Virus record (IMG/VR): IMGVR_UViG_3300031993_004551
Location: 1 to 64,000 of that record
DNA length: 64,000 nucleotides
From: a virus
Taxonomy: Duplodnaviria; Heunggongvirae; Uroviricota; Caudoviricetes
Strand: one strand, 5' to 3'
Of this stretch, positions 6,827 to 46,432 are shown one piece after another (positions within the stretch are counted from its first letter, which is position 1; every line of letters begins with the position of its first letter). Made by a program: the position numbers and the translations under genes. The notes beneath the pieces were generated by a model that did not search any database, was not told where the DNA came from, and saw nothing but the letters and a program-made list of their open reading frames with translations.

Positions 6827-6833
6827 GATACTA

Positions 6834-6848: not shown

Positions 6849-6864
6849 CGATAAACACCTGATT

Positions 6865-28897: not shown

Positions 28898-28905
28898 GGC
28901 TACCC

Positions 28906-29529
28906 CTATGCGTCGTTGATGACGCGGCTGAGCCACCGTCCGAAACGGTTATCGTACATGTTAAGTTCCGGGAGATGCTTGGCGATAGCATCGATGCAAT
29001 CGCTGACGCACTCGTCGATACCCTTACGGCCATCCACATAGACCACCGGCGTATTCCCGAGGAACTTCTCGGTCTCCGCATACGCGGTACGCAAATTCTC
29101 GAGACGCCCCGGAGTTTCCTTGAGCTTGGGTTCGCGGTCATAGCAGGTCTCGAGCGGGGTCTCCATGAAGATGTACAGGTCGGGCTGCTTGAAGATGTTG
29201 AAGTCCTGATACAGCTCCTCGCAGAACGAATAGATGCTCGGGGAGAATGCCTTGGCATAGGCAAGCCCGCTCCATAGGTACCTGTCGAGCAGAACCATAT
29301 TCCCGTTGTAGAACTTCTGCTGACGGAGACGGCCTTCGAGGAAAAACACCTCGCGCTTGGCGTCCTTGCCCTTGAACTCGTCCGAGTTGAGCCGGTCAGC
29401 CTCCTCGGTGGAAAACAGGGGTTCCTTGCTCCACTTGAATTCCGGGTAGCGCTTGGCGATAATCTTGGAAATCGTGGTCTTGCCGGAGTTGTCCACGCCT
29501 TCAAACACGATAAGCGGATTATGCTTCAT
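28906..29529 (-). CDS. tmk: thymidylate kinase-like P-loop kinase
   Basis: P-loop IVFEGVDNSGKTT. LDRYLWSGLAYAKA resembles the dTMP kinase DRY..S..AYQ motif. Start at ATG 29529 (MKHNPL), not 29652. Confidence 0.68.
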   Translation of the reverse strand: MKHNPLIVFEGVDNSGKTTISKIIAKRYPEFKWSKEPLFSTEEADRLNSDEFKGKDAKREVFFLEGRLRQQKFYNGNMVLLDRYLWSGLAYAKAFSPSIYSFCEELYQDFNIFKQPDLYIFMETPLETCYDREPKLKETPGRLENLRTAYAETEKFLGNTPVVYVDGRKGIDECVSDCIDAIAKHLPELNMYDNRFGRWLSRVINDA

Positions 29530-32486: not shown

Positions 32487-33106
32487 TATGCGGCTCCTTT
32501 GTAAATAGTGGGGACGACATCGCAGAGCATGGAACGGGCAAGCGTGAATGCCGCTTCCTGAGCCTGCTTGTTCTGTTCGGCATTGATGAAGCAAGCCGCA
32601 GTAGCACCGTCGACCACCTCAATTTTTGCATCCGGGAACCAAGCGCGGTCGATTGCCCAGTTGGAGGCATCACAGATGTCCGTGCAGGTACCGGTATAGC
32701 GAATGACGATGTTCTTGCCACGGGTAAGTGCGGCAACGGCATCCTGGTCCGTAGAGTCGATATCGAACATAACCTTCGGCCAGTTGATGAAACCAAAGTT
32801 ATGCTTGTCGATGATGATGGCATTCTTCTTCTTGAGAGCAGCCATGATTCTCGGCTCGATTTCCCATTCCGGTGTGCCGTAGACACAGTGAATCGGGAGA
32901 CGCTTGCCTTCAATAGACTGGTAATAGGAATCGTCGTCGAAGTGCGTATCGCGGGTGGCGATAATGATGCCGTCCCACGCCTCGATTTCGGCGATTACGG
33001 CGTCAATGATGGCTTCTGCAGCCGGATTCTTGAGGACTCCGGTTATGAATCCTATCTGCATGTCGATTACTTTGAGAATCTTGAGAGCTTTATCTATCAG
33101 GTTCAT
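32486..33106 (-). CDS. pncA: nicotinamidase (isochorismatase/cysteine hydrolase family)
   Basis: VIDMQIGF (D), conserved K region, GTCTDICD catalytic Cys. Confidence 0.82.
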   Translation of the reverse strand: MNLIDKALKILKVIDMQIGFITGVLKNPAAEAIIDAVIAEIEAWDGIIIATRDTHFDDDSYYQSIEGKRLPIHCVYGTPEWEIEPRIMAALKKKNAIIIDKHNFGFINWPKVMFDIDSTDQDAVAALTRGKNIVIRYTGTCTDICDASNWAIDRAWFPDAKIEVVDGATAACFINAEQNKQAQEAAFTLARSMLCDVVPTIYKGAA

Positions 33107-33121
33107 TTTTGCTTCTGTTGG

Positions 33122-34777
33122 TTATAAGCGTATTCCGCCGAAAAGGCCACACTGGTCTACTCGGTCAAGCGGTTGTTTCTTGATTCCATCCGGGAACTTC
33201 CTAATGTAGTCGTCGAGGATGCGGTTGTGGTGGAAAGCCAGCTGCATCTTCTGCGCATCGGAGATAGCAACCCACTGGACTTCCTTGGCGTCATCGGCAG
33301 GTTCAGCCCCGATGATATGCGGAATTTCAACGGCGAGACCCACATCGTATGCGCCGTGGTCTGGCTTGATGCCTGCGCGGGGGTCCGTCGGATAGTAGAC
33401 GCCGACACACTCGACTTCGGACTTGTCGATTGTGGTGATACTCGTCTCTTCCTTGACCTCGCGTAGTGCGGCTTCCTCGATATCCTCACCCGGGTCGGCG
33501 AATCCGCCCGGGAAGCACCAGTAGCCCATATACGGGCCATACTTCCTGCGGACAAGAAGGACGAATCCCTTGGAAACAATCAGAGTAGTCGCCGTCACGG
33601 AGAATGACGGGTAGTTATCCGGGTTTGCACGGGCAATCGCTTCCTTCTCGGCGGCATCGTATTCTTCCTGGGTAACCTGCCCGTACAACTTATTGTCAAC
33701 GATGTACTCGAGGGCTTCGCCCGGAACATCGGTACCGGCATACATCGGGTTGTGCAGGAGATTGAACCGTGCCTGCGTAGAGGATGTCGCCGGTATCCTG
33801 GCATTGACAATCCTGAGACGCTCCCCGACATCATCGTTGGGACGGTTAATCCTCCGGTCATTTAACGGAATGTCATTGCGCCCGAACACCATGAAGGAGA
33901 ACTGGGTAAGCAATTCCTCGCTATGCTCCCACCGGTGGAAATCGTGGAGCATACGCCATTCATCGGCGCCCATGCAGATGGTGACCTTCGACGGGTCAAG
34001 TTTGAGGGTTTCGGTGAGGAACTGGTATGTGCGCACCGGCTGTTCGACAATCTGAACAACATTGTCATCCTCGGCCCAACGGTCGGAATAACGACAAATT
34101 TCCTGAAATACTGTACGGAGCATGCGCTTTCGTGTGCCTGCCCTTACAGTATATTTCTTTTCGTCATTATTACTTACCATAAGGATGAGTGCAACCGGAA
34201 GAGGTCTATCGATATCAACCGGCTTAAACCTTTCGTTGGCAATCGCAATCATCTGGTTCAACAGGGCACGGATAATTTCCTTGTGACCGGTTGTCACCGG
34301 GTCGAACGCTCCTCCGTAAACAAGGATGTGCTTCGCATTGCGAACATTGTCATACAGAGTGACCTTATCCTTGACCTCAGCCGGCTTATCATGTAACGAC
34401 ATAACTGCAAACGACTTCTTTGCAAAGGACTTGGCAACTTCAACAGACTTGTTAAACACCGTGTAAAACAGGTCGCCCGGTGTTAAATCGATATCACACG
34501 ACTGGAGCACCTTAGAAGTCCTCTGGCGGCCCAAATCGTTAAGTTGTCCGGCAGCTTCTGCAATTCCATAGGCTTCCTTGCGGTCGACAAAGCGGAAATT
34601 GTTGCTATCTTCGCCGGCAATAAAGCCAGTACAGCTAGGTACATCGCTTGCAACCCATTCGTAGTCATCCTTGAGAGACATCAGGTTCATAGATGCATCG
34701 CCGTGGTCCTTCGCGACTGCAAACGGCTGACTGAAATTAGGGGCAAATCCCTTGAATGCACAGATAATCTTTTCCAT
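33122..34777 (-). CDS. nadM: nicotinamide/nicotinate mononucleotide adenylyltransferase fused to Nudix hydrolase, with extra N-terminal domain
   Basis: YGGAFDPVTTGH is the (H/T)xGH nucleotidyltransferase motif. C-terminal Nudix box GGFADPGEDIEEAALREVKEETSI. About 160-aa unassigned N-terminal region. Confidence 0.82.
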   Translation of the reverse strand: MEKIICAFKGFAPNFSQPFAVAKDHGDASMNLMSLKDDYEWVASDVPSCTGFIAGEDSNNFRFVDRKEAYGIAEAAGQLNDLGRQRTSKVLQSCDIDLTPGDLFYTVFNKSVEVAKSFAKKSFAVMSLHDKPAEVKDKVTLYDNVRNAKHILVYGGAFDPVTTGHKEIIRALLNQMIAIANERFKPVDIDRPLPVALILMVSNNDEKKYTVRAGTRKRMLRTVFQEICRYSDRWAEDDNVVQIVEQPVRTYQFLTETLKLDPSKVTICMGADEWRMLHDFHRWEHSEELLTQFSFMVFGRNDIPLNDRRINRPNDDVGERLRIVNARIPATSSTQARFNLLHNPMYAGTDVPGEALEYIVDNKLYGQVTQEEYDAAEKEAIARANPDNYPSFSVTATTLIVSKGFVLLVRRKYGPYMGYWCFPGGFADPGEDIEEAALREVKEETSITTIDKSEVECVGVYYPTDPRAGIKPDHGAYDVGLAVEIPHIIGAEPADDAKEVQWVAISDAQKMQLAFHHNRILDDYIRKFPDGIKKQPLDRVDQCGLFGGIRL

Positions 34778-34781
34778 AGCT

Positions 34782-34813
34782 CAAATATAGCAAAAATCCC
34801 CGTTTCCGGGGAT
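34782..34813 (-). promoter_or_regulatory. overlapping terminator hairpin (34796-34813) and promoter motif (34782-34796). ATG of nadM lies 4 nt downstream
   Basis: ATCCCCG-TTT-CGGGGAT hairpin. Its 3' T-run is the TTTTT of TTTTTGCTATATTTG. Confidence 0.55.
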
Positions 34814-34823
34814 TCTTTTAAGT

Positions 34824-36074
34824 CTAATCGGGTAGTCCGGTGTACTTCTTTCCGGTATCCACGCGCTCAAACTTCGGCATCGTGAGCTTTACCGCCATGA
34901 AGTAATCCTCGCCCATAGGTGTCGCGTTCGGGATAGCCCTTACCGCAATCAGTGATGAAGACTCATCGCGGTATATCTGAATATACAGCTCGCCGTTCTC
35001 GCCGCGGTCACCATTGTAGTACAGGAGACGCTGACCATCCGCTGTGCAAAGCTCCTTGCGGAAATCCTTGTCCAGCGTCGCGTGTAGAACATGCGTCTCG
35101 GGGTTGTACGAACGCTCACAGCCGGCGCCGGAATACCCCTCCACCAACGCAAGCAGCATATAGGCTTCGTCAATGTGGCACTGCGATGCAACCGTAGGGT
35201 CATGCTGGCGCAACTGGTAGTGAATCTCGGTAAGCCTTGCGAGAAGCGCGGGAACCTTCGGGGAACGGTCCGCGACAGCCTGCATCGCGCCGTTCAGCGT
35301 ATCCCAGAACACATCAAGGATGTCCAGGGTCTTCGAGCGGAATTCCCGGTATACCCTGTCGATATCGGCCGTGCACTCGTTGTACTTTTTGATGACCGTC
35401 TTGGCGGCACGGTCAATGTAGTCGAAGTCACTTTCGTCAGGATGCTTCGCCTCGTCGATTACTGTGTAGTCATCGAGAAGGCATTCCACAATCCTTTCAG
35501 GACCCTTTACATTGCACCGGAATCCAAACTTACGCGGAACCAAGATATCATTGTCGACAATATTAATCAGGGAATTCGCCCCGAGCATGGAAATCTTGCG
35601 GATACCCTCGATATTTTCGTTTACAAGGATGTTCCCGTCAAGCATTCCCTGCATCGTCTTCCTACCGGGATTAAACCATTCTGCGGACGAAACCTGTGAC
35701 AACAGGATATGGAACCGGTTCATAGCAACCTTTGCTTCTTCTGCCGTCTCATCGGTAAAGGTATGGTCCTTGAAGTCACGGTAGGACGGCTTCGGCTTAT
35801 AGGTCTTTTCATTATCGAGAGTCATCCCGAAGTTCTCGATAATGTAGTTCCTTGCGTCGGCTATAGCCTCCTCGGGCCGTTTCATATCACGGTTAATCAC
35901 CATAGCCCTGCCATGGGGCTGCCGCTTGTTGAACTTGATGCCGAACCCGTAACGGGTAACATTCAGCGTACCGACGACCTTGCAGGCATTTTCACCATCC
36001 GTATCGACAATATCAGCGGAAAAAAGAAGGAATGGCTTTGGAGCCACCCCTTCCTCGAATATCACAGTACGCAT
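34824..36074 (-). CDS. hypothetical protein (416 aa), translationally coupled to pncB
   Basis: Start ATG overlaps the pncB stop (TAATG). No recognisable motif. Confidence 0.6.
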   Translation of the reverse strand: MRTVIFEEGVAPKPFLLFSADIVDTDGENACKVVGTLNVTRYGFGIKFNKRQPHGRAMVINRDMKRPEEAIADARNYIIENFGMTLDNEKTYKPKPSYRDFKDHTFTDETAEEAKVAMNRFHILLSQVSSAEWFNPGRKTMQGMLDGNILVNENIEGIRKISMLGANSLINIVDNDILVPRKFGFRCNVKGPERIVECLLDDYTVIDEAKHPDESDFDYIDRAAKTVIKKYNECTADIDRVYREFRSKTLDILDVFWDTLNGAMQAVADRSPKVPALLARLTEIHYQLRQHDPTVASQCHIDEAYMLLALVEGYSGAGCERSYNPETHVLHATLDKDFRKELCTADGQRLLYYNGDRGENGELYIQIYRDESSSLIAVRAIPNATPMGEDYFMAVKLTMPKFERVDTGKKYTGLPD

Positions 36075-37492
36075 TAGGCAGCCACCTCGAACTCGTCGAT
36101 GATATTACCCTTCGGGTCAAACTTAACCAGTTTTCCACCGTAGATAATCTCATCGAGCTGCTTACGGCTGAAGCGGTCAATCGGAGCCCAGTTGTATGCG
36201 AGCTTTGTATCGATGATTGTCTTCTGGTCGGTGCACATGCACTTGCCTTCACTGTCGGAAAGCTTGACGACATGCTGGCCGTTGCATTCGGTGACCTTCA
36301 TCACGATGGGCAACGGCTGCTTTGCACCCGGCTTGCAGCAGATTGTGGCAGAGAGGAATGTACCGATACCGAATGCGACATTGATATCCTTGTAGAACTC
36401 CCAGGCAATCTTGAGTGCCTTGTCCGCATCCAAGCTGTCGCTCCAGCAGGCCGTCTTGGACTTCGGGTCGACCTTTCCACGCCTGTAGTGGTCGATGAGC
36501 ATGTGCCCCCACTTGAACGGGTCGCCGCTGTCGTGGCGGCAGCCGTCGTAGAGCTTCATGAAGGACACGTCGAAGTCGCGGAGGAACGCAGCGAAACCGA
36601 AGTTGTCGCTCAAGGCGATACCGAGGGAACCGCGGAACTCGTCGTCCCAGTTGGAAAGGACCCACTTCTGGGCGTCCTTCAGGCGAATGCCCTTTGCCTG
36701 TGCGATTGCGTAAAGCTCGTGGGCAAATGTGCCAATCGCTTTACAGTCGCACTTGATTGCGAGCCAGACGTTGGATGTTCCCACGAATGCCGGGCAGAAC
36801 TTGAGGAGGTACATGACCATGTACTCGTTCCACTCGTTGCTGATGCCACGGCGGACACCGAAGTCGGAAACCGTGAAGCGGCATCCTTCGCGCCAAGCCT
36901 TGTTCCACTTGACGACGACTTCCTCGAGGTTCTTCTTGGCGTATTCCCAGTCGAACTCCTCGCCCTCGAAGTAGAGCTGCTGCACAATCTGCAGCACATA
37001 TATTTCGAACCAGAACACATCGAGCTGCGGACCTTCGGCAACGATGCGGACGCCGCCGTTCACGGACGGGTCGGCGAATACGCGGATGTACTTGCGGTCA
37101 AGCTGGAGCTTCTCGAGGTAACGGATGAAGTCATCGCTGAGCCACGGGAGCTTCTTGCGGATGCCCTCGATTTCTTCCTTGGTGTAGCGCAAGGTGCAGA
37201 GCCAGTCGAGTTCGGCACAGATGTCCTCAATGAGATAAGTGAGGTCTACGCCCTTCGTACGGAGGCAGAATTCCCATTTAGCCTTATCATTATAACAGCG
37301 ATGCTTGTAGAACTGACCCATTGAGTATTTATAAGTATCTGTTTGGGTCAGATGCTCAATGATATGCTTATCCGGGTTGCGCCGGGTAAACTTCTTGATA
37401 GCCTTCGTGATAATCTTCTTGCGCTTCGGACGGGTCTTGAACGGGTCAATTCCCTTCTTGAGCAAAGCCTTGTCACTTAGTTTCCGTGTCAT
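36074..37492 (-). CDS. pncB: nicotinate phosphoribosyltransferase
   Basis: TDTYKYSMGQ, WFVGTSN, GTFAHELY, LGIALSDNFGFAAFLRDF, GCRHDSGDP and KVTECNGQHVVKLSDSEGK all match E. coli PncB blocks. Extra 40-aa basic N-terminus. Confidence 0.9.
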   Translation of the reverse strand: MTRKLSDKALLKKGIDPFKTRPKRKKIITKAIKKFTRRNPDKHIIEHLTQTDTYKYSMGQFYKHRCYNDKAKWEFCLRTKGVDLTYLIEDICAELDWLCTLRYTKEEIEGIRKKLPWLSDDFIRYLEKLQLDRKYIRVFADPSVNGGVRIVAEGPQLDVFWFEIYVLQIVQQLYFEGEEFDWEYAKKNLEEVVVKWNKAWREGCRFTVSDFGVRRGISNEWNEYMVMYLLKFCPAFVGTSNVWLAIKCDCKAIGTFAHELYAIAQAKGIRLKDAQKWVLSNWDDEFRGSLGIALSDNFGFAAFLRDFDVSFMKLYDGCRHDSGDPFKWGHMLIDHYRRGKVDPKSKTACWSDSLDADKALKIAWEFYKDINVAFGIGTFLSATICCKPGAKQPLPIVMKVTECNGQHVVKLSDSEGKCMCTDQKTIIDTKLAYNWAPIDRFSRKQLDEIIYGGKLVKFDPKGNIIDEFEVAA

Positions 37493-38699
37493 TTTCGTTA
37501 TCCCTGTTGATGTTTTCCTGTTTAAATTCCTGCATTTTCAGATTCTCCAAGGTTACCTTGCGCATACCCTTGTAGATACTCTCGCGGATGGCCATCCAGC
37601 CTTCCTCGGATATCGAACCATTCAATGCCCACCGTCCCGCCGAAGCGGCCGCGCCGATGACCGTCGGGTAATCGTCGAACTCCTTGCGAGCCAGCTCGTA
37701 AACCGCCCGGCCGGCGTCAACCTTGTCGCTAACACATCTGTCGGCGAATCCCTGTATACGAGTATACAAGCTGTCGAAGATTTCGCCGAAGCTTTTCAGG
37801 AACGCCTTAATGTCCACCAGTTCCTCCGGGACGCTCTTGACGGTTTCGTCCGGGAACTTCCCGTCCTTCCACGAGAATATATCCAAGAGGTTCCTCGGGG
37901 TGAGGCTGTGGAACAGCTTCTGCGCGGCAAGGAACTCCGGACCCTTGAGCTTCACCTTGAACCCGTCGCCGTAGGTAAGGACGAGCCCTTCCTTGCTTGC
38001 CGGCAGCTTCTTGACATACTCGCAGGTAGCCTCGAAGGACGGAAGCTCGATGCGCTCGGCGAGAGGCACTCCCATCGCCTTGGCAATCATCTTCAGGTTC
38101 TCGTAGGAATATTCCCTGCCGGTAGCATTCAGGATTACCCCGGTAAGCACACAGGCCTCGTAGTCGTACCTGATAGGATGGACATCCTCCTTGCAGAGAA
38201 TCTCGAACATATAGGTACATCCGGAAGCCATGTAGTTCTGGATTCCCCTCTCGCGGAGCCACTTTTCGGCCCATTCGCCCTGGAAAGCCGTGAATGCACC
38301 CGAAGTGGTTACCAAAAGATTCCCGTCGACGATACCCGCGATGCACAGCGAACCGTCAAGCTTGTCGGTCGCGCTGAACCATCCTTTCGGGTCGAACTTC
38401 GGCTCGTACCCGGGAATCTTGCTGAGCAGGTCGAACAGCGAAGTATGCTGCATCGTCTCGCTATAGAGTTCCCCGAAGTTGAAGAACTTGGACCACGGGC
38501 GCAGTACGCACTCGCCGTCGCTGACCCTAAATACATGCCCCCTCGAGTTGAGGGTGATTTCGTCCCATCGCTGGTCGTATATCGTGTACTCGGTATACTT
38601 GAACTTGACATATTTCCTGTCAGGCGAATATGTCATGATTAAGTCCGGGCCGTCGGCACGGGCGATATACTCGGAAAGCGGGGGTAATTTTTCTACCAT
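37473..38699 (-). CDS. RNA ligase, T4 Rnl1 family
   Basis: LNSRGHVFRVSDGECVLRPWSKFFNFGE resembles T4 Rnl1 [31 protein letters not shown]. Motif I TDKLDGSL resembles KEDGSL. Confidence 0.85.
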   Translation of the reverse strand: MVEKLPPLSEYIARADGPDLIMTYSPDRKYVKFKYTEYTIYDQRWDEITLNSRGHVFRVSDGECVLRPWSKFFNFGELYSETMQHTSLFDLLSKIPGYEPKFDPKGWFSATDKLDGSLCIAGIVDGNLLVTTSGAFTAFQGEWAEKWLRERGIQNYMASGCTYMFEILCKEDVHPIRYDYEACVLTGVILNATGREYSYENLKMIAKAMGVPLAERIELPSFEATCEYVKKLPASKEGLVLTYGDGFKVKLKGPEFLAAQKLFHSLTPRNLLDIFSWKDGKFPDETVKSVPEELVDIKAFLKSFGEIFDSLYTRIQGFADRCVSDKVDAGRAVYELARKEFDDYPTVIGAAASAGRWALNGSISEEGWMAIRESIYKGMRKVTLENLKMQEFKQENINRDNENDTETK

Positions 38700-38730
38700 A
38701 GGTTTAAGCTCGCTTAAAATTTGTTAATTT

Positions 38731-38745
38731 CAAATATAGCAATTT
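38731..38745 (-). promoter_or_regulatory. promoter motif (minus-oriented) 31 nt upstream of the rnl ATG
   Basis: CAAATATAGCAATTT. Confidence 0.5.
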
Positions 38746-38775
38746 TACTGGCGGAGAGCGCCAAATACCGAACCT

Positions 38776-39351
38776 ATGAAATACAAGTGTGTGTATCCAA
38801 AGTGCGATTACGAGACAGACGAGCGTTCACTTATCCATTTCCACCATGTAGTCCCAAGGGAACTCAAGAGGAAGCTCAACAGGAGGCTGACGCTTCCTTT
38901 CTGCCCGATACACCACAACCTCATATTCCACCCGGACGCCCAGAGCGGCCAGCACTCGGAAATCAGGGAAGGCTCCCTTGTCATTGAGCAGGTGGCCCCG
39001 ACCAATACGGGCAAGGCGATTATCTACAGGGACATGGCGGGGAACGAAATAACTGTCAATGTGGATGTACGGAGGGTCACCGCGGGGACCATATCGGTGC
39101 TCCGGTGGGATATCGTGAACGGTCTGACCGAGGAAGAGCTCATCGAAAGCGACCCGAAGATTGAATCCGTTGTCGACCGTCGTGGATACTACACAGATGG
39201 GCACTCCATATACTTCACCGACGGGTTCCGCCATGTAGCAGTGGACCTCCTCCGCGGAATCATCTCCACCTACATAGCAAAGATGGAAGGTGAATACGAA
39301 AAGGCCCTGGCAAAAGCCAAGGCCGACCGCGACGAACTGGACAAAATCTAG
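38776..39351 (+). CDS. hypothetical protein with N-terminal HNH/Zn-finger-like motif
   Basis: CVYPKC...HFHHVVPRE...CPIHHNLIFH weakly resembles an HNH motif. Only plus-strand gene in this block. Confidence 0.4.
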   Translation: MKYKCVYPKCDYETDERSLIHFHHVVPRELKRKLNRRLTLPFCPIHHNLIFHPDAQSGQHSEIREGSLVIEQVAPTNTGKAIIYRDMAGNEITVNVDVRRVTAGTISVLRWDIVNGLTEEELIESDPKIESVVDRRGYYTDGHSIYFTDGFRHVAVDLLRGIISTYIAKMEGEYEKALAKAKADRDELDKI

Positions 39352-39713
39352 TTCTTCACTTCCTCTATATTGAGCATCTCGCGCATCTTCGCGTCGATGA
39401 TATCGAATGCCGTCGTCAATCCGCTATTGAACCCGGTACCGTAGGCATCGATAACACCCTGCGATATGTTGCGTGTAAGCTCCTCGGAAAACGCTACCCC
39501 CATTTGTTCCGGGGTAAGTATGTCAGCTTTCTCCTTACGAATCCTCTTCGCGTTCTTTTCGTAGGTATTGATAATCTTGACGACAATGGTCTCTATAGTC
39601 TGCTTATTCCCGTCAATCGCCCGGGATATCAGGTCCCCGATTTGGTCTTTGGAAAGAGTGACTTTAACCAGCCCCTCGATTGGCTTATTTTCTTCTCCGT
39701 TGGTTCCGTCCAT
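39348..39713 (-). CDS. hypothetical protein (121 aa)
   Basis: ORF. Confidence 0.45.
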   Translation of the reverse strand: MDGTNGEENKPIEGLVKVTLSKDQIGDLISRAIDGNKQTIETIVVKIINTYEKNAKRIRKEKADILTPEQMGVAFSEELTRNISQGVIDAYGTGFNSGLTTAFDIIDAKMREMLNIEEVKN

Positions 39714-39718
39714 GCCAG

Positions 39719-40483
39719 TTATTCCTCCTTGATGTCAGGGATGTATAGGTTTGTAACGCCGTCATCCTTGACAAGGGAATGACCCTTGGAATCCTTCCCG
39801 AACCGCTCGGTGAATGTCTTGGTGTTAAACGGCTTGGTAATCAGGTGAATCCCGGTGCGGCTATGGAGGACAGCAATTTTCTTGTCGCCATTGACCGGTG
39901 TGCAGGATTCGTTGATGAACTTCATGTAGGTATCGGAAATCTCCTCGACCGAACGAAATCCTTCGACATCCGGCTTAACGAGGTCCGCGTCGATATCGAT
40001 AATCCACTTTGTCGTAGAGCGGTCTTCGGAATTGTACATACCAAGCGCATTGGAGTATAAGCTTGCCGCAGACTTCAGCCGAGGGAATTTAAACGGCTTG
40101 CCGGTTACCGGGTCGACACGGTTGCCAGTCATTATCATCGAGGCATCCCCATGGCGGATAGCCTTGCGGATAGTGGCGTTATACTGGATTTCTCGACGGA
40201 GAATCTCAATCTGGACATAGAGGTTGGCTTCCTGTACATTCCTCTGGTTGAGTCGGATGATTGCGCGGGCGCCGAGACGGTCACATTCCGCCTTGATGCG
40301 GGGCTTGAGCGAATCCCACTCCTTGAAGGACTTAATATGGTAGTCGCGAACCATGCGTTCGCCAGTAGTCCCGTGGTCCTTGCCACGCCAAATAATTTCG
40401 ACGAAGTACATATCGCCGTTGAGTTCAAAGTGGATTAAGTCCCTAATCCTATCAAAATTGTCGACCATAATTTTTTCCTTCAA
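39719..40483 (-). CDS. hypothetical protein (254 aa)
   Basis: ORF. No motif. Confidence 0.5.
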   Translation of the reverse strand: MKEKIMVDNFDRIRDLIHFELNGDMYFVEIIWRGKDHGTTGERMVRDYHIKSFKEWDSLKPRIKAECDRLGARAIIRLNQRNVQEANLYVQIEILRREIQYNATIRKAIRHGDASMIMTGNRVDPVTGKPFKFPRLKSAASLYSNALGMYNSEDRSTTKWIIDIDADLVKPDVEGFRSVEEISDTYMKFINESCTPVNGDKKIAVLHSRTGIHLITKPFNTKTFTERFGKDSKGHSLVKDDGVTNLYIPDIKEE

Positions 40484-40499
40484 ATTATAGGGATTCGAG

Positions 40500-41006
40500 T
40501 TACCGCTTTAAATTTACATAATCGGTTGCTTCCCTTAGCAAAGATAGCAATTCCTCGGCAACAGGAGGTTCATACTTGCACAGCAACTCGTTGATATTCA
40601 AGTCTTTCTCGATAAAATAATTGGGGTCGGCCCACAGCAGGCATATTTCGTACTGCCCCTTGGTAAGCTTCAGGAATTTCTTCGCCGCATCAGTCTCGGC
40701 AAGCGCCGCAGCGATATACCCGGCATCCAAGTCGGATATCTTGATGTAGTTGCCGTACCGGTAGGTTTCCAAACGCATATCGATATACGGCGAAACATAT
40801 ATCGCATAATTCTTCGGCTCTTCTTCCGGCGCCCAACTGGCGGCAGCATCCTTGTGACCAACCCGGCGAAGCACCGAGGTAGACCTTCTCAGTATCCGTC
40901 TAAGCCAATGAAGAGCAATGAGCAGGTATAGCGCCTTCTTCAGCACAGTATAGATTCCCTCGCCTTCTTCAGCTTGAGATAGGTGTGGACATTGTAGTGG
41001 ACACAT
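40500..41006 (-). CDS. hypothetical protein (start uncertain)
   Basis: ORF. Its 5' end overlaps the phosphatase gene by 66 nt, so the true start is probably internal or non-ATG. Confidence 0.35.
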   Translation of the reverse strand: MCPLQCPHLSQAEEGEGIYTVLKKALYLLIALHWLRRILRRSTSVLRRVGHKDAAASWAPEEEPKNYAIYVSPYIDMRLETYRYGNYIKISDLDAGYIAAALAETDAAKKFLKLTKGQYEICLLWADPNYFIEKDLNINELLCKYEPPVAEELLSLLREATDYVNLKR

Positions 41007-41440
41007 GGATTATCCGGGTTAGTCTCGTTATGGTCCGGATAGAAGTCAAGCACATAGCGGGTGACCGCCTGGGAACGGGACTTGCCGGCCCTGCAGTGAA
41101 CCATTATGTCCATATCCTTGTGGGACTCGATGAACCGGACTATTTTCCCGGCGGTCTCATTGGTTATCCCGTGAGCAGTAAGCGGGTCGCTATTGTCGCC
41201 ATCGTCGCGCATATCGAAATAATCGACATCAACCGTTATGTCGTCGAACTCCACATTGAGGACATTTTCGTGGTCTTCGGAGAAGAAATGCGGGTCGCCG
41301 TCACGGAGAACCCGGTTAGCCACTTCCGGGTTGCAGCAGATGGAAATCACGGCGAAATCCTTGGGAGGATTAGCGTCGCTGAACCCGTGTTCACGGCAGT
41401 ACTTCTCGAAGTTTCGCTTGCTGAAACAGATTATCTTCAT
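40940..41440 (-). CDS. dual-specificity (CX5R) protein/RNA phosphatase
   Basis: VHCRAGKSRSQAV is the HCxxGxxRS P-loop of cysteine phosphatases. Confidence 0.7.
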   Translation of the reverse strand: MKIICFSKRNFEKYCREHGFSDANPPKDFAVISICCNPEVANRVLRDGDPHFFSEDHENVLNVEFDDITVDVDYFDMRDDGDNSDPLTAHGITNETAGKIVRFIESHKDMDIMVHCRAGKSRSQAVTRYVLDFYPDHNETNPDNPCVHYNVHTYLKLKKARESILC

Positions 41441-41449
41441 CGGGGGAAC

Positions 41450-41665
41450 CTACTTGAGCGAACTAGGAACCTTGAGCTTCTTGCCGCACGGGCACCTGAG
41501 AACCAAGTTCTTGTATCGTTCGAGCTCGGCCTTGAGGTTCTTGTTCTCGTTGCGCAAGGCGGCAAGCTCGATTGCAATCTTGCTATCAACTTTCGGGGAG
41601 CCGTCCGGGTTCATCCCGCACATATCCATAAGTTTTTCGTAGCTGAACGGATTATCATCAGCCAT
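41450..41665 (-). CDS. small hypothetical protein (71 aa)
   Basis: ORF with coiled-coil-like segment and a CPCG motif. Confidence 0.35.
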   Translation of the reverse strand: MADDNPFSYEKLMDMCGMNPDGSPKVDSKIAIELAALRNENKNLKAELERYKNLVLRCPCGKKLKVPSSLK

Positions 41666-41724
41666 AATAGTCTCCTTAATTTCCTTCCATAGGCATGTAT
41701 TGTCAGTTTAGCGGATGCCGCCGC

Positions 41725-42438
41725 TTATTCCAGCGCGACTACCGGATGTCCCTCGCACAGCCCGTGGTAGACATGGTTGGCCGTGTAGAGCTTTTCCGCC
41801 GGTATCGGGGCGTAGGCGACTTCCCAGGACACATTGTTCTGCATCTTGAAGTCCTTCCACGGGAGGGAGCTGAACCGTTCCTCCTCATGGGTATGCCCGT
41901 GTACAAGCACGGTCTTCGCCGGGTCGAGCTTCTGCCGGTACGCCATCAGGTTCCTGGAATCCGGACGGTCCACCTGACGCTTCGAGAAGAACGGAAAGTG
42001 CTGACAGAAATACACCTTGTCGTGCCAACGCAGTACGGCGTAGTCCCTGATGTCGACCAGGCCGCCATGTACGCTCTTGTCGTGGTTCCCGCGGATGTAC
42101 AGCTTGATACCCGGGAGCGGACCGTACAGAGCGTTGAACTTCTCGTCGAATTCCTCCTGCGTATCGGAGTGCCCCATCATGAAATCACCGAGGAACACCA
42201 CGACATCATCCGGCCGAATCAGCGTCATCCACTTATTGCGCATGTCGTCGTTCATTTCCTTAGTAGTCTGGTATGTCCGGATACGCTCGAAGTGCTTCGG
42301 GGACGCCGGAGTGAGCTTTGCGTGATTGAAATGGGTATCCGATATGAAGAACAGCCTGGAGCTATCCGGGATGACCTGGGAGAAATATGTTCGTTCGGAC
42401 TGTTCGTCCGGAATTGAAAGATTTAAAACTTCAGACAT
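41725..42438 (-). CDS. calcineurin-like metallophosphoesterase (lambda phosphatase-like)
   Basis: ISDTHFNH, GDFMMG, GNHD, VHGHTH. Start at ATG 42438 (MSEVLNL). Confidence 0.7.
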   Translation of the reverse strand: MSEVLNLSIPDEQSERTYFSQVIPDSSRLFFISDTHFNHAKLTPASPKHFERIRTYQTTKEMNDDMRNKWMTLIRPDDVVVFLGDFMMGHSDTQEEFDEKFNALYGPLPGIKLYIRGNHDKSVHGGLVDIRDYAVLRWHDKVYFCQHFPFFSKRQVDRPDSRNLMAYRQKLDPAKTVLVHGHTHEEERFSSLPWKDFKMQNNVSWEVAYAPIPAEKLYTANHVYHGLCEGHPVVALE

Positions 42439-43666
42439 TTTTATTTTCCTCTGGGAGTCTTCGGCGTTCCCGAAGTTCTCCCGGTGTGACACGGAATACC
42501 GGCAAGCTCGAAAACTCGTCTGGGAGCGACGCCAGCAAGTCGATGAACATTTCATCGAGCTGCTCGTCGGTTACCGGGTCGTGGAGATATTTAGAATCCT
42601 TGAAGCATTCCTCAACTTCCTTCACAAGGGAATCGCTCAGGTTCATCATATCTTCGTATGAATATGTACCCTTCTTGATACTGAGAAGGTAATCGCGCTT
42701 GTCGCTGCAGTCTACCGTCACTTTTCCGGTAAGCGCGATGTTCTTAGCTGTAAGCAGGAGACGGATGCAGTGCATCGTATTCTTTGCATCGTATCCCTTG
42801 CCGTGTTTTTCGGTTTCCGCATACCTGACCTCGTTGCGTTCCTTCTTTACCCAGTTCCAGTAATGGGTATGTTCCTTGCAGTCATGAGAGAACGCATCTG
42901 GGTTGAATGTCAGGAAGGCAACCGGATTGAGACCCTTCGGAATATGCTTGGCAAGCTGGATATCGCAGGCCTTCTTTTCGTCCGTGACGACGCCGTATGC
43001 CCAGCGCCATTTGTGTTCAGGAATTTCCTCGGGCGGACGGTCTGGCTGCAACAAGGAATAGCTAAGTCCTTCAGCTTTATCCTGATAGTACAGCGCATAG
43101 GTATTCTTGCAGTGGTCAATCTTTGCCAATCCGTACCACTTCTGGTCTTGTTTTGCCAGAGTATCCTGCTCAGCAAGGAACTGCTTGAACGGCTTGCACT
43201 TGATGTCCTGGCCGTACACATAACAGTAATCGAGAACCTGCGGAGCTTCCTCGGGGCACGGGTTATTGAATTTCTTGTTGAGGCCGTACGCGCGGCTCAA
43301 CTGAGTCTTGGCATATTCCTGGTAGGACTTGAGGACTCGGGTTGTAACCCAGATATCCTTCGGAATCGCGTCGAAAAGTTCCTTACCCTTGAGTATGCAC
43401 CTTTCGGGGCTATTGAGCAACTCCAGAGCGTTCGGGTTGCCCTGCTGCAAATACTGGAGGAAGTTGGAGAGTTCCCAGTATTCGGTGTTATTCTTGTCGT
43501 CAGCTACACGCATATCCGGCTTGAACGACACCCTTTCCTTCATCGGCAACACATAGACGCCGCGGACATCAGTATCAGATGTCTCGGTGGCAAGTCCGAA
43601 AGACTGGCTTCCCACGACAGCTTCCATGAGTATCCAGCCCTTTTCCTTGAGTTCTTCAATAGTCAT
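42431..43666 (-). CDS. Pol-beta superfamily nucleotidyltransferase (411 aa)
   Basis: VVGSQSFGLATETSDTDVRGVY matches the minimal NTase signature [GS]x9-13Dx[DE]. Confidence 0.6.
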   Translation of the reverse strand: MTIEELKEKGWILMEAVVGSQSFGLATETSDTDVRGVYVLPMKERVSFKPDMRVADDKNNTEYWELSNFLQYLQQGNPNALELLNSPERCILKGKELFDAIPKDIWVTTRVLKSYQEYAKTQLSRAYGLNKKFNNPCPEEAPQVLDYCYVYGQDIKCKPFKQFLAEQDTLAKQDQKWYGLAKIDHCKNTYALYYQDKAEGLSYSLLQPDRPPEEIPEHKWRWAYGVVTDEKKACDIQLAKHIPKGLNPVAFLTFNPDAFSHDCKEHTHYWNWVKKERNEVRYAETEKHGKGYDAKNTMHCIRLLLTAKNIALTGKVTVDCSDKRDYLLSIKKGTYSYEDMMNLSDSLVKEVEECFKDSKYLHDPVTDEQLDEMFIDLLASLPDEFSSLPVFRVTPGELRERRRLPEENKNV

Positions 43667-43770: not shown

Positions 43771-44901
43771 CTAAAGTCGTGGGATTCTGGGAGTTGCCAC
43801 AGATGGGCAACATGTCCCAAAGGTAGATGCCCCTACCTTACATAAGTTAATTGCGGCATTCCTATCCCTATCGTGTTCCGCACCACATTTAGGACATATC
43901 CAATGACGGATTGACGCATCCTTCAATTTGTGGTTTTTATAACCGCATTCGGAGCATAGCTGACTGGATGGATACCACTTGTCTGCGTACATGACCGTCT
44001 TACCAGTCCTATGAGCTACATATTCGAGAACGCTCAAGAAGGTATCGAACCCGAAGTCATACATGGACTTTTTGTACTTCCTGGATAGATTACCCAAGTC
44101 CAGCGTTTCAAACACCATCACATCGTAATCACGGCAGAACCGCCGAGCCAACTTCCAGTGCATGTCCGAACGCTGATTAGCCACCTTCTCGTGTAGCTTC
44201 TGCAATGTACGCAGCGAGCCTCGCTTACCTTTAGACTTTCGGTATTTCTCCGATAAGTTCCTTAAAGAATTGAGGTTCTTCTGCAAGATTTTAGGCATAC
44301 TGCAATCATCACCGTTAGAGGAAACCAAGAAGTCATGCACACTGAAGTCGAAACCAACGATTTCACCCGATTTAGTCCACTCTGTCTGTGTACATTCTTG
44401 CTCTACGACTACATAAATATAGAAACCATTACTCTTGCGTTTGACGGTGAGCGTTTTAATCTTGCCGTCGAAATCCCTGCTGTTCCAGTAGGGAAAGTCT
44501 TTCTTGCCTATCTTAACATGATTTAAGTCGTGAAACTTGTATCCAGCTTGCTTCGTCGTGAATGAATGATATTTAGCCGTCTTCTGGAAGTGAGGAGGAT
44601 TAGTCTTCTTTCCAGCTTTCAAATTCGAGAAGAATAAATGGTATGCCCGGTCTATCCTATCCGTTATGTCTTGGATGGCTTGCGAAGGAACTTCGTTCCA
44701 CTCTGTATATTGTTTCTTCAACTTTGTGAGGTACTTCTGTAACTGGTACTTATTCAACATCTTATGGTAGATGCCATAGTACCGACGGTGCAGAGCAATA
44801 CAGTGGTTGAATATCCGACCAGCAATAACAAGTATATTGTCGAGATACTTCAAGGAATCCCGATTGTACAGCTTGTATTTGTATGTATTCAATTCAACCA
44901 T
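43771..44901 (-). CDS. tnpB: TnpB (IS605 OrfB family)
   Basis: RuvC-I VGFDFSV. SQLCSECGYKNHKLKDASIRHWICPKCGAEHDRDRNAAINL is the Zn finger plus RuvC-III. Start at ATG 44901 (MVELNTYKYKLY). Confidence 0.85.
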   Translation of the reverse strand: MVELNTYKYKLYNRDSLKYLDNILVIAGRIFNHCIALHRRYYGIYHKMLNKYQLQKYLTKLKKQYTEWNEVPSQAIQDITDRIDRAYHLFFSNLKAGKKTNPPHFQKTAKYHSFTTKQAGYKFHDLNHVKIGKKDFPYWNSRDFDGKIKTLTVKRKSNGFYIYVVVEQECTQTEWTKSGEIVGFDFSVHDFLVSSNGDDCSMPKILQKNLNSLRNLSEKYRKSKGKRGSLRTLQKLHEKVANQRSDMHWKLARRFCRDYDVMVFETLDLGNLSRKYKKSMYDFGFDTFLSVLEYVAHRTGKTVMYADKWYPSSQLCSECGYKNHKLKDASIRHWICPKCGAEHDRDRNAAINLCKVGASTFGTCCPSVATPRIPRL

Positions 44902-44955
44902 AGATAAGCAAAATGTCCACAGAACGCTTAATTTGCCCGTCAGCATTCCGTGGAC

Positions 44956-45241: not shown

Positions 45242-46432
45242 TTAAATGTGGCCGTCAGAGGTTCCGAAACAGCGAATCGGAGAATACTCGATTAAATATG
45301 CCCAATCGTCGCCGACCGTCGTAATTTCGCCGACAAATACCGATTCCGTAATGCCGTCAAGCTGGAGTATCTTACGGTTATACATATTGTCCTTGAACGA
45401 GAAACATTCGGTCTTAAGATTATTGACCAATTCGTCGCAATGGGCCAATACTGCTCGTGCGAGCAGTTGCCTTAAGGTCTTCTCATTCATATTCAGCCAA
45501 GGTTCACGAGTCAATTCGCTGTTAAAATTGTTGGCATAGAATCTTTGCACATCGAGAATACCTGAAATATCCACCGAAGCAACGGCCAAGGTCGCCGCCT
45601 TATAGAACTTCGCCACATCGACTTCTTTGGCTGAAGCTTTAGGGTATATTGTCTCGAGGCCGCCCGTCTTTGGCGGTTCAGCCGTTTCGACCGGTTCTTC
45701 GGAAATGGTAGCTTCCGGCGCATCAGCGTCTACCGTGGTCACCTTGATAGCATTTGCCGCCTTCTTTACGGGAGGATGCACGACAGGTTCCGTATCATGA
45801 GAATCGTGCGGGTAATCACGGTCGACTACGGATATCGGCTGGCCGAAAGATTCGGACGCCAAAGTATTATATAGTTCAATTGTACCGATTCTAGCCAACA
45901 AGTCATTCATCATGATTGACGGTGAGCCAATCGTGGCGGCAGGAATATTATGCCATTCGGCAACATCAGGGTATACGGAATTATCATACAACAGTCCATC
46001 GGTATACCCAAGTTGAGTGTTATGTCCAAAACAAGCGCACAGCCAAATGCTATAATCGTTGTATTCAAGTATAAAGCCGGAATCAATCTTTTTATCAGTG
46101 GATAAAAAGTCTGCATAATCGCGCAAGCACAACGAACAATTAAAAGTCCATTCTGGGTAGTTGCTATCGTAAAAACGCGATTTCCCAACACGGTCAATAT
46201 AGGGAACACCCGAATTATTTTCAAGTGTAACATTAAGTTCTTTCTTTAAAAGCTCATTAATGGCGTCACAACGAGATGCAACTGAATCTAACGGTTGCTT
46301 ACCGTCCTTTCCCATTCGATATAAATATGATAACGCCTTGCCTAATGCAGAATCGGCTAATGATTCAATAAAGCGTTCTTGATTAGTAACACTCTTATGT
46401 ATATAGAAACTGATATTATAAGTAATTTTCAT
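45242..46432 (-). CDS. hypothetical protein (396 aa)
   Basis: Long ORF. Promoter motif 4 nt upstream of the ATG. Confidence 0.5.
   Translation of the reverse strand: MKITYNISFYIHKSVTNQERFIESLADSALGKALSYLYRMGKDGKQPLDSVASRCDAINELLKKELNVTLENNSGVPYIDRVGKSRFYDSNYPEWTFNCSLCLRDYADFLSTDKKIDSGFILEYNDYSIWLCACFGHNTQLGYTDGLLYDNSVYPDVAEWHNIPAATIGSPSIMMNDLLARIGTIELYNTLASESFGQPISVVDRDYPHDSHDTEPVVHPPVKKAANAIKVTTVDADAPEATISEEPVETAEPPKTGGLETIYPKASAKEVDVAKFYKAATLAVASVDISGILDVQRFYANNFNSELTREPWLNMNEKTLRQLLARAVLAHCDELVNNLKTECFSFKDNMYNRKILQLDGITESVFVGEITTVGDDWAYLIEYSPIRCFGTSDGHI

Follow-up and report, generated by a model that had tools for sequence, protein, structure and literature searches.

A putative RNA break-repair island built around an Rnl1-family ligase and an RlaP nucleotidyltransferase in a Caudoviricetes genome

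Do the four minus-strand genes between positions 37473 and 43666 of this phage DNA, which encode a ligase, a cysteine phosphatase, a metallophosphoesterase (MPE) and a nucleotidyltransferase (NTase), form one RNA-repair system, and which of them act on RNA? The original prediction read them as a tRNA-repair counter-defence module. The conserved, co-oriented set of Rnl1 ligase, RlaP-type NTase and MPE fits such a module, whereas the full healing set and the CCA-adding type proposed with it do not hold. We put at about 0.55 the probability that with this island of genes the phage repairs broken RNA, most likely tRNA, by a variant form of T4's Rnl1 system.

The four open reading frames (ORFs) are real genes. 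A check of the minus strand of the window (the whole 64-kb stretch analysed) found all of them where they had been called, and orthologues at 43-65% identity occur in the same order, RlaP-MPE-DSP-x-AEP-...-HNH-Rnl1-NAPRT (DSP being the cysteine phosphatase and AEP a primase-like gene), in independent metagenomic contigs and related megaphages. Their co-orientation stood, but not the order in which they were first written, transcription running from the NTase through the MPE and DSP genes and eventually to Rnl1. The RlaP, MPE and DSP genes abut or overlap and are translationally coupled, by overlaps of 8 nt and 1 nt. Direct reading of the sequence places the RlaP stop codon (TGA) at 42433-42431 and the MPE start (ATG) at 42438-42436, so that the overlap proposed at 42431-42438 is exact. 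In the MPE-DSP gap lies a 71-aa ORF (41450..41665, minus strand), a doubtful gene with no family match and no homologue in L001 or L004, loci in which the MPE gene directly adjoins that of the DSP. The DSP and Rnl1 genes are not contiguous; between them are a 168-aa ORF of uncertain start (40500..41006, minus), which overlaps the 3' end of the DSP gene, the conserved 254-aa primase-like gene, a conserved 121-aa protein (39348..39713, minus; same-position homologues of 27% identity in L001 and 35% in L004) and, on the opposite strand beside Rnl1, a 191-aa Cys/His-rich, HNH-like protein (38776..39351, plus). Neither the 168-aa nor the 121-aa product has a family match; the former evolves fast and takes the position occupied in relatives by a 144-aa gene, the L004 copy of which looks unrelated but has a similarly hydrophobic/basic N-terminus. 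The 191-aa protein is without a Pfam match and was called HNH-like by inspection only, and its orthologues (51-53% identity) lie divergently beside Rnl1 in L001, L004, L015, L094 and L095. Because this synteny covers the entire region, gene order in close relatives is weak functional evidence.

The ligase (37473..38699, minus; 408 aa) is, as predicted, an Rnl1-family ATP-dependent RNA ligase. It matches Pfam RNA_lig_T4_1 (PF09511) at E 7e-12, which exceeds the gathering score, and phrog_562 at E 4.5e-37, and its homologues are annotated as RNA ligase 1 in 591 phage records. Identity to T4-type Rnl1 is only about 23%, far short of the NCBIfam equivalog cut-off, but the equivalents of T4 R54, K75, F77, K99, D101, G102, E159, E227, G228, K240 and K242 are all kept, the sole catalytic residue changed being K119, which is Ser here. 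Repair of tRNA is the known role of the Rnl1 family. The 411-aa Pol-beta NTase (42431..43666, minus), the first gene of the run, belongs to the RlaP family (PF10127 at E 5.2e-22, scoring 79.2 bits where the cut-off is 23; phrog_388 at E 2.9e-38). Its G19-S20 and D31-x-D33 are invariant in an alignment with relatives, and it is about 30% identical to RlaP homologues of cultured phages (Pectobacterium, Cronobacter, Tenacibaculum and Lak). The suggestion that it is a CCA-adding-type enzyme was rejected, as the PF01743 profile is unmatched and RlaP is matched instead. Members of the RlaP family have been shown biochemically to attach one or two NMP at the 3'-OH of broken RNA, to prefer broken-tRNA mimics and to restore aminoacylation of tRNA missing one nucleotide (PMC12776372). 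Moreover, the distribution of RlaP in jumbo phages mirrors that of RNA ligases (PMC7824862). The core idea is therefore not new, since the pairing of Rnl1 with RlaP has been described in phages before, T4 included (PMC7824862; PMC12776372).

The MPE (41725..42438, minus; 237 aa from the ATG at 42438) matches Metallophos_2 (E 3.4e-8; 34.1 bits, cut-off 27) and phrog_547 (E 1.8e-31), and its binuclear metal-binding motifs are complete, with D34, H36, D85, N118, H119, H147, H182 and H184 invariant. It had been described as lambda-phosphatase-like, but sequence and profile comparison detected no kinship with either lambda phosphatase or the CthPnkp phosphatase; the nearest relative is aq_1665 (PDB 1xm7, E 1e-11; family profile, E 9e-27), and judged by its sequence the MPE is an active-looking member of the uncharacterised aq_1665 clade. 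In the bacterial Pnkp and Pnkp-Hen1 systems, as in Clostridium thermocellum, a binuclear MPE turns 2',3'-cyclic phosphate ends into 3'-OH ends, after which ATP-dependent ligation follows (PMC3675462). However, the phosphatase there resembles lambda phosphatase and forms part of one protein with a kinase and a ligase, whereas the MPE here is a stand-alone protein of the aq_1665 clade in a locus without kinase and without Hen1. Calcineurin-like phosphatases have also been mentioned as occasional components of RNA repair in a few jumbo phages (PMC7824862).

The CX5R cysteine phosphatase (40940..41440, minus; 166 aa) was correctly recognised as such, and its HCRAGKSRS motif and predicted structure give it a DSP/PTP fold, but an RNA end-healing role does not follow, as it resembles protein-directed DUSPs more than RNA phosphatases. 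The best 50 Foldseek matches of its AlphaFold model (pLDDT 93.7) in the PDB are all PTP-superfamily cysteine phosphatases or complexes containing one, mostly DSPs with some PTEN-like, PRL and classical PTPs (top match 6i28, E 3e-3, TM 0.48), and its profile matches DUSP10, STYX and DUSP22 at about 1e-4; the RNA 5'-phosphatases BVP, PIR1 and Mce1 are absent among the Foldseek and profile matches listed. It shares the HCxAGxSRS P-loop and the fold with viral and other DSPs such as baculovirus PTP-2 and poxvirus VH1. It is nonetheless divergent from them, with a score against Pfam DSPc of 18.8 bits (cut-off 33.5), TM-scores of only about 0.45-0.5 and a conserved acidic pair (FDD) that precedes the Cys by about 50 residues; D66, D67, C116, A118, G119, S121, R122, S123 and Q124 are invariant among 34 homologues. 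In locus L205 a DSP homologue and Rnl1 overlap directly. The link of the DSP to repair is the weakest in the island.

The earlier reading overlooked the primase-like (AEP-like) gene (39719..40483, minus; 254 aa, or 249 aa from the ATG at 40468), where the cross-lineage link to RNA ligases is stronger. Its product is a member of the large uncharacterised phage family phrog_14949; profile searches matched no AEP family or PDB entry, and Foldseek was likewise empty. It departs from the AEP/PrimPol superfamily in lacking a conserved motif III acidic residue and in being a stand-alone protein of only about 200 aa, unlike the divergent AEPs predicted in RNA-repair systems, which are multidomain and mainly kinetoplastid. 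Among 35 dereplicated lineages of the gene, the MPE family lies within 10 kb in 13 and an Rnl1 or Rnl5-like ligase in seven. RNA_ligase is the most frequent Pfam family among 150 neighbours from 33 other lineages, and RtcB, HAD_PNKP and SmpB are also found there. The gene adjoins RlaP in contigs L014, L015, L016 and L040 and in Lak megaphages; its neighbour in Cellulophaga phage phi17:2 is a CCA-adding enzyme. Several unrelated contigs also have Rnl1 and MPE genes that overlap each other. Tested against the other anchor sets, the enrichment is modest (p = 0.014 for the MPE and p = 0.07 for the ligase), and most of the distant RlaP loci are without these neighbours (MPE in 5 of 43 clusters; ligase in 2 of 43, as detected by narrow HMMs). 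In our reading the AEP-like and DSP genes, both conserved, belong to the same island as the putative RNA-repair genes.

In the repair pathway that we propose, host defence RNases would cut tRNA or other translation RNAs, and the MPE may strip 2',3'-cyclic or 3'-phosphate groups to leave a 3'-OH. RlaP, in keeping with the activity known for its family, would restore one or two nucleotides where the 3' fragment has been trimmed, and Rnl1, whose sealing activity we infer because its active site is intact, would join 3'-OH to 5'-phosphate ends. The AEP-like protein may be a second nucleotide-adding or RNA-end-processing enzyme, since its family recurs beside RNA ligases and the MPE family in unrelated phages. 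The claim that all the activities needed to heal such ends are present did not survive a search of the block and the whole 64-kb window, which contain neither a polynucleotide 5'-kinase nor a Pnkp-type phosphatase, the four P-loop proteins being PhoH, an SF1 helicase, an AAA protein and thymidylate kinase. The healing pathway is therefore incomplete as encoded here. A kinase may be encoded elsewhere in the genome, or the module may target metal-dependent nucleases that leave 5'-P/3'-OH ends, such as the tRNA nuclease AriB of PARIS, after which a kinase is unnecessary (PMC12409363). The window has no tRNA genes, and no host nuclease was identified.

It is possible, if rather unlikely, that only Rnl1 and RlaP act on RNA and that the MPE, DSP and AEP-like genes are independent early or auxiliary genes sharing a syntenic accessory region. 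The DSP could then be a protein phosphatase directed against host kinase-based immunity or used in host takeover, the other possible roles being a second-messenger nucleotide phosphodiesterase and a replication primase. DSP homologues do occur away from RNA-repair genes: in Pseudomonas phages of 45-50 kb and in PA5oct/MIJ3-like phages, one carrying a virion-protein annotation; in Lak phages, some 370 kb distant from RlaP; and in megaphage loci and the P0025 locus, with no repair genes nearby. The DSP profile is nearest to MAPK-phosphatase-type DUSPs. In the same direction point MPPED2 and other phosphodiesterases, which rank after aq_1665 among the PDB matches of the MPE profile, the placing of P0110, a remote AEP-like homologue, close to helicase and methylase genes, and the span of gene-order conservation in close relatives. 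However, independent genes would not account well for the RlaP-MPE-DSP coupling, for the repeated direct adjacency of Rnl1-MPE, AEP-MPE, AEP-RNA ligase, Rnl1-Pnkp-AEP and Rnl1-DSP in lineages less than 45% identical, or for the rank of RNA ligase above every replication family among the AEP-like neighbours.

We give little credence to the view that the ligase, primase-like enzyme and MPE form an NHEJ/LigD-like 'ribo-patch' set acting on DNA breaks or nicks that carry ribonucleotides, and so protecting the phage genome rather than tRNA. It would explain the weak matches of the MPE to PdeM, a ligase-associated DNA-damage endonuclease (TIGR04123, E 5e-5, far below cut-off), and to the 'Nuclease MPE' structure 6nvo (E 0.016), as well as an ATP-dependent DNA ligase 2.4 kb from the AEP-like gene in phi17:2. 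The window also holds a second ligase, of the DraRnl/Rnl5 type, described in PMC4408790 as sealing nicks with RNA as the 3'-OH strand. Nevertheless, the partners of these genes (RNA ligases, RtcB, Pnkp, CCA-adding enzyme and SmpB) are all RNA or translation factors, and the established role of the Rnl1 family is in tRNA repair. RlaP, moreover, is inactive on DNA (PMC12776372). It seems similarly improbable that both phosphatases serve NAD+ salvage. In that view, for which Adpp, the Macro-domain phosphatase of NARP1-AP, offers an analogy, they would remove phosphate from, or cleave, phosphorylated products of NAD+ breakdown or immune signals derived from ADPR, and so allow NAD+ to be made again. 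The block does continue without strand change into an operon for NAD+ salvage, which comprises NAPRTase, NMNAT-Nudix, a PncA-like gene and NadE and beyond which lie NADAR and a further MPE. The Rnl1 stop overlaps the NAPRTase start by 20 nt, 3 of 23 DSP lineages have NAPRT homologues no more than 10 kb from the DSP homologues, and there is a precedent for a phage NAD+ reconstitution operon enlarged by a phosphatase (bioRxiv 10.64898/2026.01.28.702374). Yet the ADPR-1''-P phosphatase that is known belongs to the Macro domains, not to the DSPs or MPEs; it is to RlaP that the MPE and DSP genes are coupled, 5 kb away from the NAD genes and separated from them by Rnl1; and in other lineages the MPE family partners Rnl1 and the AEP-like gene, not NAD genes.

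As a probable break-repair island, the locus resembles T4 tRNA repair in its Rnl1-family ligase with matching catalytic residues, in the presence of an RlaP-family NTase in the same genome (NrdC.11 in T4, encoded elsewhere; PMC12776372) and in a presumed counter-defence role against tRNA-cleaving host nucleases. It differs in that the window is without Pnkp, having neither P-loop kinase nor HAD DxDxT phosphatase, and 3'-end healing would presumably fall to the MPE; RlaP is clustered with the ligase rather than dispersed, and the DSP and primase-like genes are extra. The known RlaP RNA-repair systems likewise combine a PF10127 NTase with an ATP-dependent 5'-phosphate RNA ligase (Burroughs & Aravind 2016; Iyer et al. 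2021, PMC7824862; Carruthers et al. 2025, PMC12776372), and the 3'-OH end that RlaP produces suits Rnl1. The characterised RlaPs come from Pseudomonas RtcB-RtcA operons, whereas this one is a 411-aa phage protein, and in the papers on RlaP repair systems that we consulted we found no description of the tight RlaP-MPE-DSP coupling or of the neighbouring primase-like family. Because the island is co-oriented and overlapping with the operon for NAD+ salvage, we read the entire stretch as a region of counter-defence.

All four genes named in the original prediction are present and real, and they belong to a long series of minus-strand genes in the window transcribed in the order nucleotidyltransferase (NTase; 42431-43666, 411 aa), metallophosphoesterase (MPE; 41725-42438, 237 aa, matching Metallophos_2 and phrog_547), CX5R cysteine phosphatase (DSP; 40940-41440, 166 aa, motif HCRAGKSRS) and, further downstream, the RNA ligase Rnl1 (37473-38699, 408 aa). 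The 8-nt overlap proposed for the NTase and MPE genes is exact, the minus strand reading ...GAG GAA AAT AAA AAT GTC TGA with the phosphoesterase ATG embedded within it. The block genes are not contiguous: intervening are a doubtful ORF of 71 aa, an ORF of 168 aa, a conserved gene for a 254-aa protein (39719-40483, minus strand), a 121-aa gene and, on the opposite strand, a Cys/His-rich gene of 191 aa (38776-39351, plus strand) that is HNH-like by eye and has no Pfam match. This last gene also stands divergently beside Rnl1, at about 50% identity, in five viral contigs (L001, L004, L015, L094 and L095) and seems to be something other than a sporadic homing endonuclease. A TnpB gene directly upstream of the NTase (43771-44946, minus strand; OrfB_IS605 and Cas12f1-like TNB domains) looks like a recent insertion between the NTase and a 396-aa gene (45242-46432), since the close relatives L001 and L004 lack TnpB there; a second, weaker TnpB-like ORF lies at 47933-49165 (plus strand). 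No GenBank phage was matched by the 7-kb block in a megablast search, and therefore no annotated close relative is available. The window contains no tRNA genes, and its sole Rfam match is a HEARO RNA (RF02033, 97.7 bits) distant from the block, followed directly by a 427-aa ORF (58738-60021) within 58446-60021 (plus strand), the arrangement expected of an IscB-type element; GC content drops sharply there, to 0.36 in 58-60 kb.

The suggestion that the NTase might be a CCA-adding enzyme has to be given up. RlaP (PF10127; 79.2 bits, cut-off 23) is the sole Pfam match of the 411-aa protein at E<=0.01, PF01743 is not matched, and an NCBIfam search returned nothing relevant. Judged by this profile, the enzyme is a member of the RlaP, or "RNA-ligase-associating Pol-beta", family, in which G19-S20 and D31-x-D33 (the Pol-beta signature G[GS] ... 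DxD) are invariant, as is E65, a candidate third carboxylate. As in L001 and L004, the RlaP gene is followed on its own strand by Rnl1, in the window 3.7 kb downstream, and the distribution of RlaP mirrors that of RNA ligases in jumbo phages (Iyer et al. 2021; PMC7824862). A 2025 preprint reports that Pseudomonas RlaPs extend RNA 3'-OH ends by one or two NMPs, favour the break in a cleaved-tRNA mimic and partly restore aminoacylation of a tRNA that has lost a nucleotide; its authors place T4 NrdC.11 in the family and propose RlaP as an antidote to RloC-type nucleases, which excise a nucleotide (PMC12776372). This extension has been demonstrated for the Pseudomonas enzymes only, and by family membership the window RlaP may carry it out too.

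Rnl1 passes the curated Pfam threshold for RNA_lig_T4_1 (PF09511; 46.1 bits, cut-off 28.3) and matches phrog_562 with an E value of 4.5e-37. The residues that we take to be essential in T4 Rnl1 are the nucleophile K99 (of KxDG), R54, K75, F77, G102, K119, E159, E227, G228, K240 and K242, a list reportedly derived from mutagenesis in the Shuman laboratory. In an alignment with the T4 sequence, cross-checked with the T4-like Rnl1 of phage Brandy (L010), R53, K71, F73, K113, D115, G116, E166, E237, G238, K250 and K252 of the window enzyme align with T4 R54, K75, F77, K99, D101, G102, E159, E227, G228, K240 and K242; K119 alone is replaced (S133), as it is in L001 and L004. The score against the T4 RnlA equivalog model of NCBIfam (TIGR02308) is 28.7 bits, the cut-off being 242, and identity to T4-type enzymes is about 23%, so that by sequence the protein is best described as a divergent family member and not as a T4 RnlA equivalog. 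It carries a C-terminal extension of about 150 aa, a candidate for the helical domain to which Rnl1 enzymes owe their tRNA specificity; the T4 alignment is poor there, and the phrog_562 alignment runs to profile position 328 of 377. A second RNA ligase of 447 aa (52326-53669, minus strand) is DraRnl/Rnl5-like, having a PHA02142 OB-fold at its N terminus and a PF09414 RNA_ligase domain at its C terminus. This ligase is also conserved in L001, and its gene adjoins that of an SF1 helicase (54524-55930).

The MPE scores above the cut-off for Metallophos_2 and has all metal-binding motifs, with SDTH, GD, GNHD, H147 and GHTH invariant in 11 family members. Its description as lambda-phosphatase-like does not hold, as neither the sequence nor the family profile matched lambda PP in the PDB at E<=1; nor did either match the CthPnkp phosphatase module under the same limit. 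The sole close structural relative is the uncharacterised Aquifex protein aq_1665 (E 1e-11; 9e-27 with the family profile), followed by MPPED2 and purple acid phosphatases, and a weak PDC-S10 match to the MPE was the sole result of a PADLOC scan of the block. The prediction of a CX5R phosphatase is borne out by invariant C116 and R122 in HCRAGKSRS and by a PTP fold in a confident model (pLDDT 93.7). Its best 50 Foldseek matches are all PTP-superfamily cysteine phosphatases, mostly DSPs, or complexes containing one, albeit weakly similar (best E 3e-3, TM about 0.48), and with the family profile DUSP10, STYX and DUSP22 rank first (about 1e-4). The protein reaches 18.8 bits against Pfam DSPc, for which the gathering score is 33.5, and 5 of 42 homologues among the matches listed have a precomputed PF00782 match. 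The RNA 5'-tri/diphosphatases BVP, PIR1 and Mce1 do not appear among the profile and fold matches listed, in which similarity is weak overall. A rhodanese, suggested by the best single-sequence PDB match (HP1203), was ruled out by the CX5R loop and the DSP fold and profile. A 367-kb phage contig with a DSP homologue (L008) also encodes a 361-aa protein (6043-7128) with nucleoside 2-deoxyribosyltransferase-like and Metallophos_2 domains.

T4-type healing requires a 5'-kinase. The full set of end-healing activities first proposed for the block is incomplete in this respect, as we found neither a Pnkp P-loop kinase nor a HAD DxDxT phosphatase in the 64-kb window. A six-frame Walker-A search of the window yielded four motifs, none in a polynucleotide kinase by Pfam; they belong to PhoH (60049-61152, plus strand; PF02562, E 5.9e-64), the SF1 helicase, an AAA protein and a thymidylate-kinase-like protein. 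Likewise, tblastn of a T4-like PseT against the window gave no match. The module as encoded there therefore cannot phosphorylate 5'-OH ends. A kinase may be encoded elsewhere in the genome, which is probably several hundred kb long given that contigs of relatives reach 170-430 kb. It is also possible that the targets are tRNAs cut by metal-dependent nucleases such as PARIS AriB, which leaves 5'-P/3'-OH ends (PMC12409363).

The conserved 254-aa protein belongs to phrog_14949, a large family (2,666 cluster representatives at E<=1e-3) without annotated function or characterised member. It has no match in Pfam, NCBIfam, PADLOC or PDB sequences, and in a domain-fusion search of the best 150 of the 2,666 representatives nearly all were stand-alone proteins of about 200 aa. 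Across 147 diverse representatives R28, K30, D158, D160, G206 and H208 are invariant, the last four falling in the motifs "WIIDID" and "sKxGxHLITKPF". The DxD and GxH of these motifs correspond, in order, to AEP motifs I (hhhDhD/E) and II (sxH) as defined in PMC5862659. A counterpart of motif III (hD/E) is missing: beyond motif II the family has no invariant acidic residue, and several members have Asn or Met in place of the candidate Asp of "KDxPT". The predicted model is confident (pLDDT 90.7) and gave nothing beyond noise in a Foldseek search against the PDB; Pfam scans of 39 alignment members and a profile search against PDB sequences likewise returned only noise. Because motifs I and II occur in order while motif III and a Foldseek match are missing, we call the protein primase-like (AEP-like) with moderate confidence. 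Readings of its motifs as 2H-phosphoesterase, ligase KxDG or Pol-beta G[GS]-DxD were dropped by eye alone. Divergent AEP domains are described in predicted RNA-repair systems, mainly in kinetoplastid multidomain proteins, at least as summarised in PMC5862659 from Burroughs & Aravind 2016.

Close relatives keep the series RlaP-MPE-DSP-x-AEP-like-...-HNH-Rnl1-NAPRT at 43-65% identity, with RlaP, MPE and DSP abutting; as the whole region is syntenic, this is weak evidence on its own. We next turned to distant homologues of RlaP, the AEP-like protein and DSP, around which 80 viral loci were fetched for each anchor, scanned over ±10 kb with purpose-built HMMs and dereplicated at 60% identity by anchor, "MPE" denoting the family of the window enzyme and "RNA ligase" either Rnl1 or Rnl5-like proteins, for which the HMMs are narrow. 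Near the AEP-like gene (35 lineages) we found MPE in 13, RNA ligase in 7, Pnkp in 3, RlaP and DSP in 2 each and NAPRT in 1. The corresponding counts for RlaP (43 lineages) were MPE 5, RNA ligase 2, Pnkp 7, AEP-like 4, DSP 3 and NAPRT 2, and for DSP (23 lineages) MPE 5, RNA ligase 4, Pnkp 1, RlaP 3, AEP-like 2 and NAPRT 3. Fisher tests, which compare each anchor with the other anchor sets and not with random genes, were modest (MPE, p = 0.014; ligase, p = 0.07). Direct adjacencies recur among lineages with <45% identity: Rnl1 and MPE overlap in L114, L119, L127 and L148, AEP-like and MPE genes are adjacent in L104, L116, L131 and L154, AEP-like and Rnl5-like ligase genes adjoin in L146 and L159, L138 has the series Rnl1-Pnkp-AEP, RlaP and AEP-like genes are adjacent in L014, L015, L016 and L040, and Rnl1 overlaps the DSP homologue of L205. 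In Lak megaphages RlaP lies 0.9 kb from the AEP-like gene, and in Cellulophaga phage phi17:2 an annotated PF01743 tRNA nucleotidyltransferase directly follows it. The phi17:2 locus (L253, 17907-20415) runs from primase-like gp033 through CCA-type gp032 to gp031, annotated with a PARP-family domain, and an ATP-dependent DNA ligase lies two genes beyond gp031. In a Pfam census of 150 neighbours of the AEP-like gene (>=130 aa, ±2.5 kb, 33 lineages, the window's own left out), RNA_ligase was commonest (8 proteins), followed by Metallophos (6) and SmpB (3), and RtcB, HAD_PNKP and an exoribonuclease occurred once each. Within 2.5 kb of primase-like homologues in L099-L172 there are SmpB (3 lineages), DUF2828 and DUF7788 (3 each), RtcB and an Rv2179c-like 3'-5' exoribonuclease, which hints at a wider translation-rescue/RNA-repair neighbourhood around the family.

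The neighbourhood link is strongest for MPE with the AEP-like gene and RNA ligase, and weakest for DSP, whose homologues also occur in small Pseudomonas phages, one being annotated as a virion protein. One alternative is that the accessory genes are functionally independent. Many family members lie in unrelated contexts, and the adjacencies recur at low identity. Another alternative is a LigD-like DNA or ribo-patch repair set; Pseudomonas RlaPs are inactive on DNA (PMC12776372).

According to a further alternative, the phosphatases would act for the NAD+ operon next to the block. Immediately after Rnl1, and without a change of strand, comes a complete Preiss-Handler-like NAD+ route (31701-37492, minus strand). 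It begins with an NAPRTase whose start is overlapped by the Rnl1 stop (36074-37492) and continues with a 416-aa protein that is conserved (34824-36074), a fusion of NMNAT and Nudix (33122-34777), an isochorismatase/PncA-like gene (32486-33106) and the NAD synthase NadE (31701-32486); its composition differs from those of the published NARP1, NARP2 and NARP3. Adjoining these genes, all on the minus strand, are those of a NADAR-domain protein (28385-28936), of a metallophosphoesterase different from the MPE of the block (29519-30382) and, in an overlapping frame region, of the thymidylate-kinase-like protein (28906-29652). What speaks against such a role of DSP and MPE is that the ADPR-1''-P phosphatase known from phages is neither a DSP nor an MPE but a Macro domain.

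We favour a role in RNA repair, in which a tRNA would be cut by host RNases, MPE, acting like the MPE module in bacterial Pnkp (PMC3675462), would clear the 2',3'-cyclic or 3'-phosphate, RlaP might restore one or two lost nucleotides, as demonstrated for its family only, and Rnl1, with its intact active site, would seal the break. The AEP-like enzyme may supply a further nucleotide-adding or end-processing activity. A bolder version, which we regard as a long shot, casts phrog_14949 as a novel RNA-end polymerase and partner of RNA ligases, which makes or extends a short RNA patch at the break, DSP trimming the patch 5'-triphosphate to a ligatable 5'-monophosphate and MPE clearing the 3' end; if true, tRNAs from which nucleotides are missing could be repaired by "patch and seal" independently of a kinase.

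Earlier comparative-genomics work has described both the association of Rnl1 with RlaP and the occasional use of calcineurin-like phosphatases when phages repair RNA. Different here are the kinase-less composition within the 64-kb window, the translational coupling of the RlaP-MPE-DSP trio and the recurrence beside RNA ligases of a primase-like family that is large and unannotated. The cleavage of tRNA has come to be seen as a widespread defence against phages, and T4 Rnl1/Pnkp is, to our knowledge, the sole phage repair pathway that has been worked out. The locus, whose closest cultured homologues are in Bacteroidota phages, would represent a compact conserved alternative in large phages, consisting of a ligase, RlaP and a stand-alone MPE without a kinase, and it flags two unstudied partners. 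Most of the remaining value lies in the primase-like family, which, being large, without annotated function and recurrent beside RNA ligases, offers a concrete lead to a possible new activity in RNA repair, testable by simple biochemistry. The repair island is also physically fused to the NAD+ salvage operon, which suggests that megaphages combine their responses to the two commonest abortive-infection effectors, namely cleavage of tRNA and depletion of NAD+.
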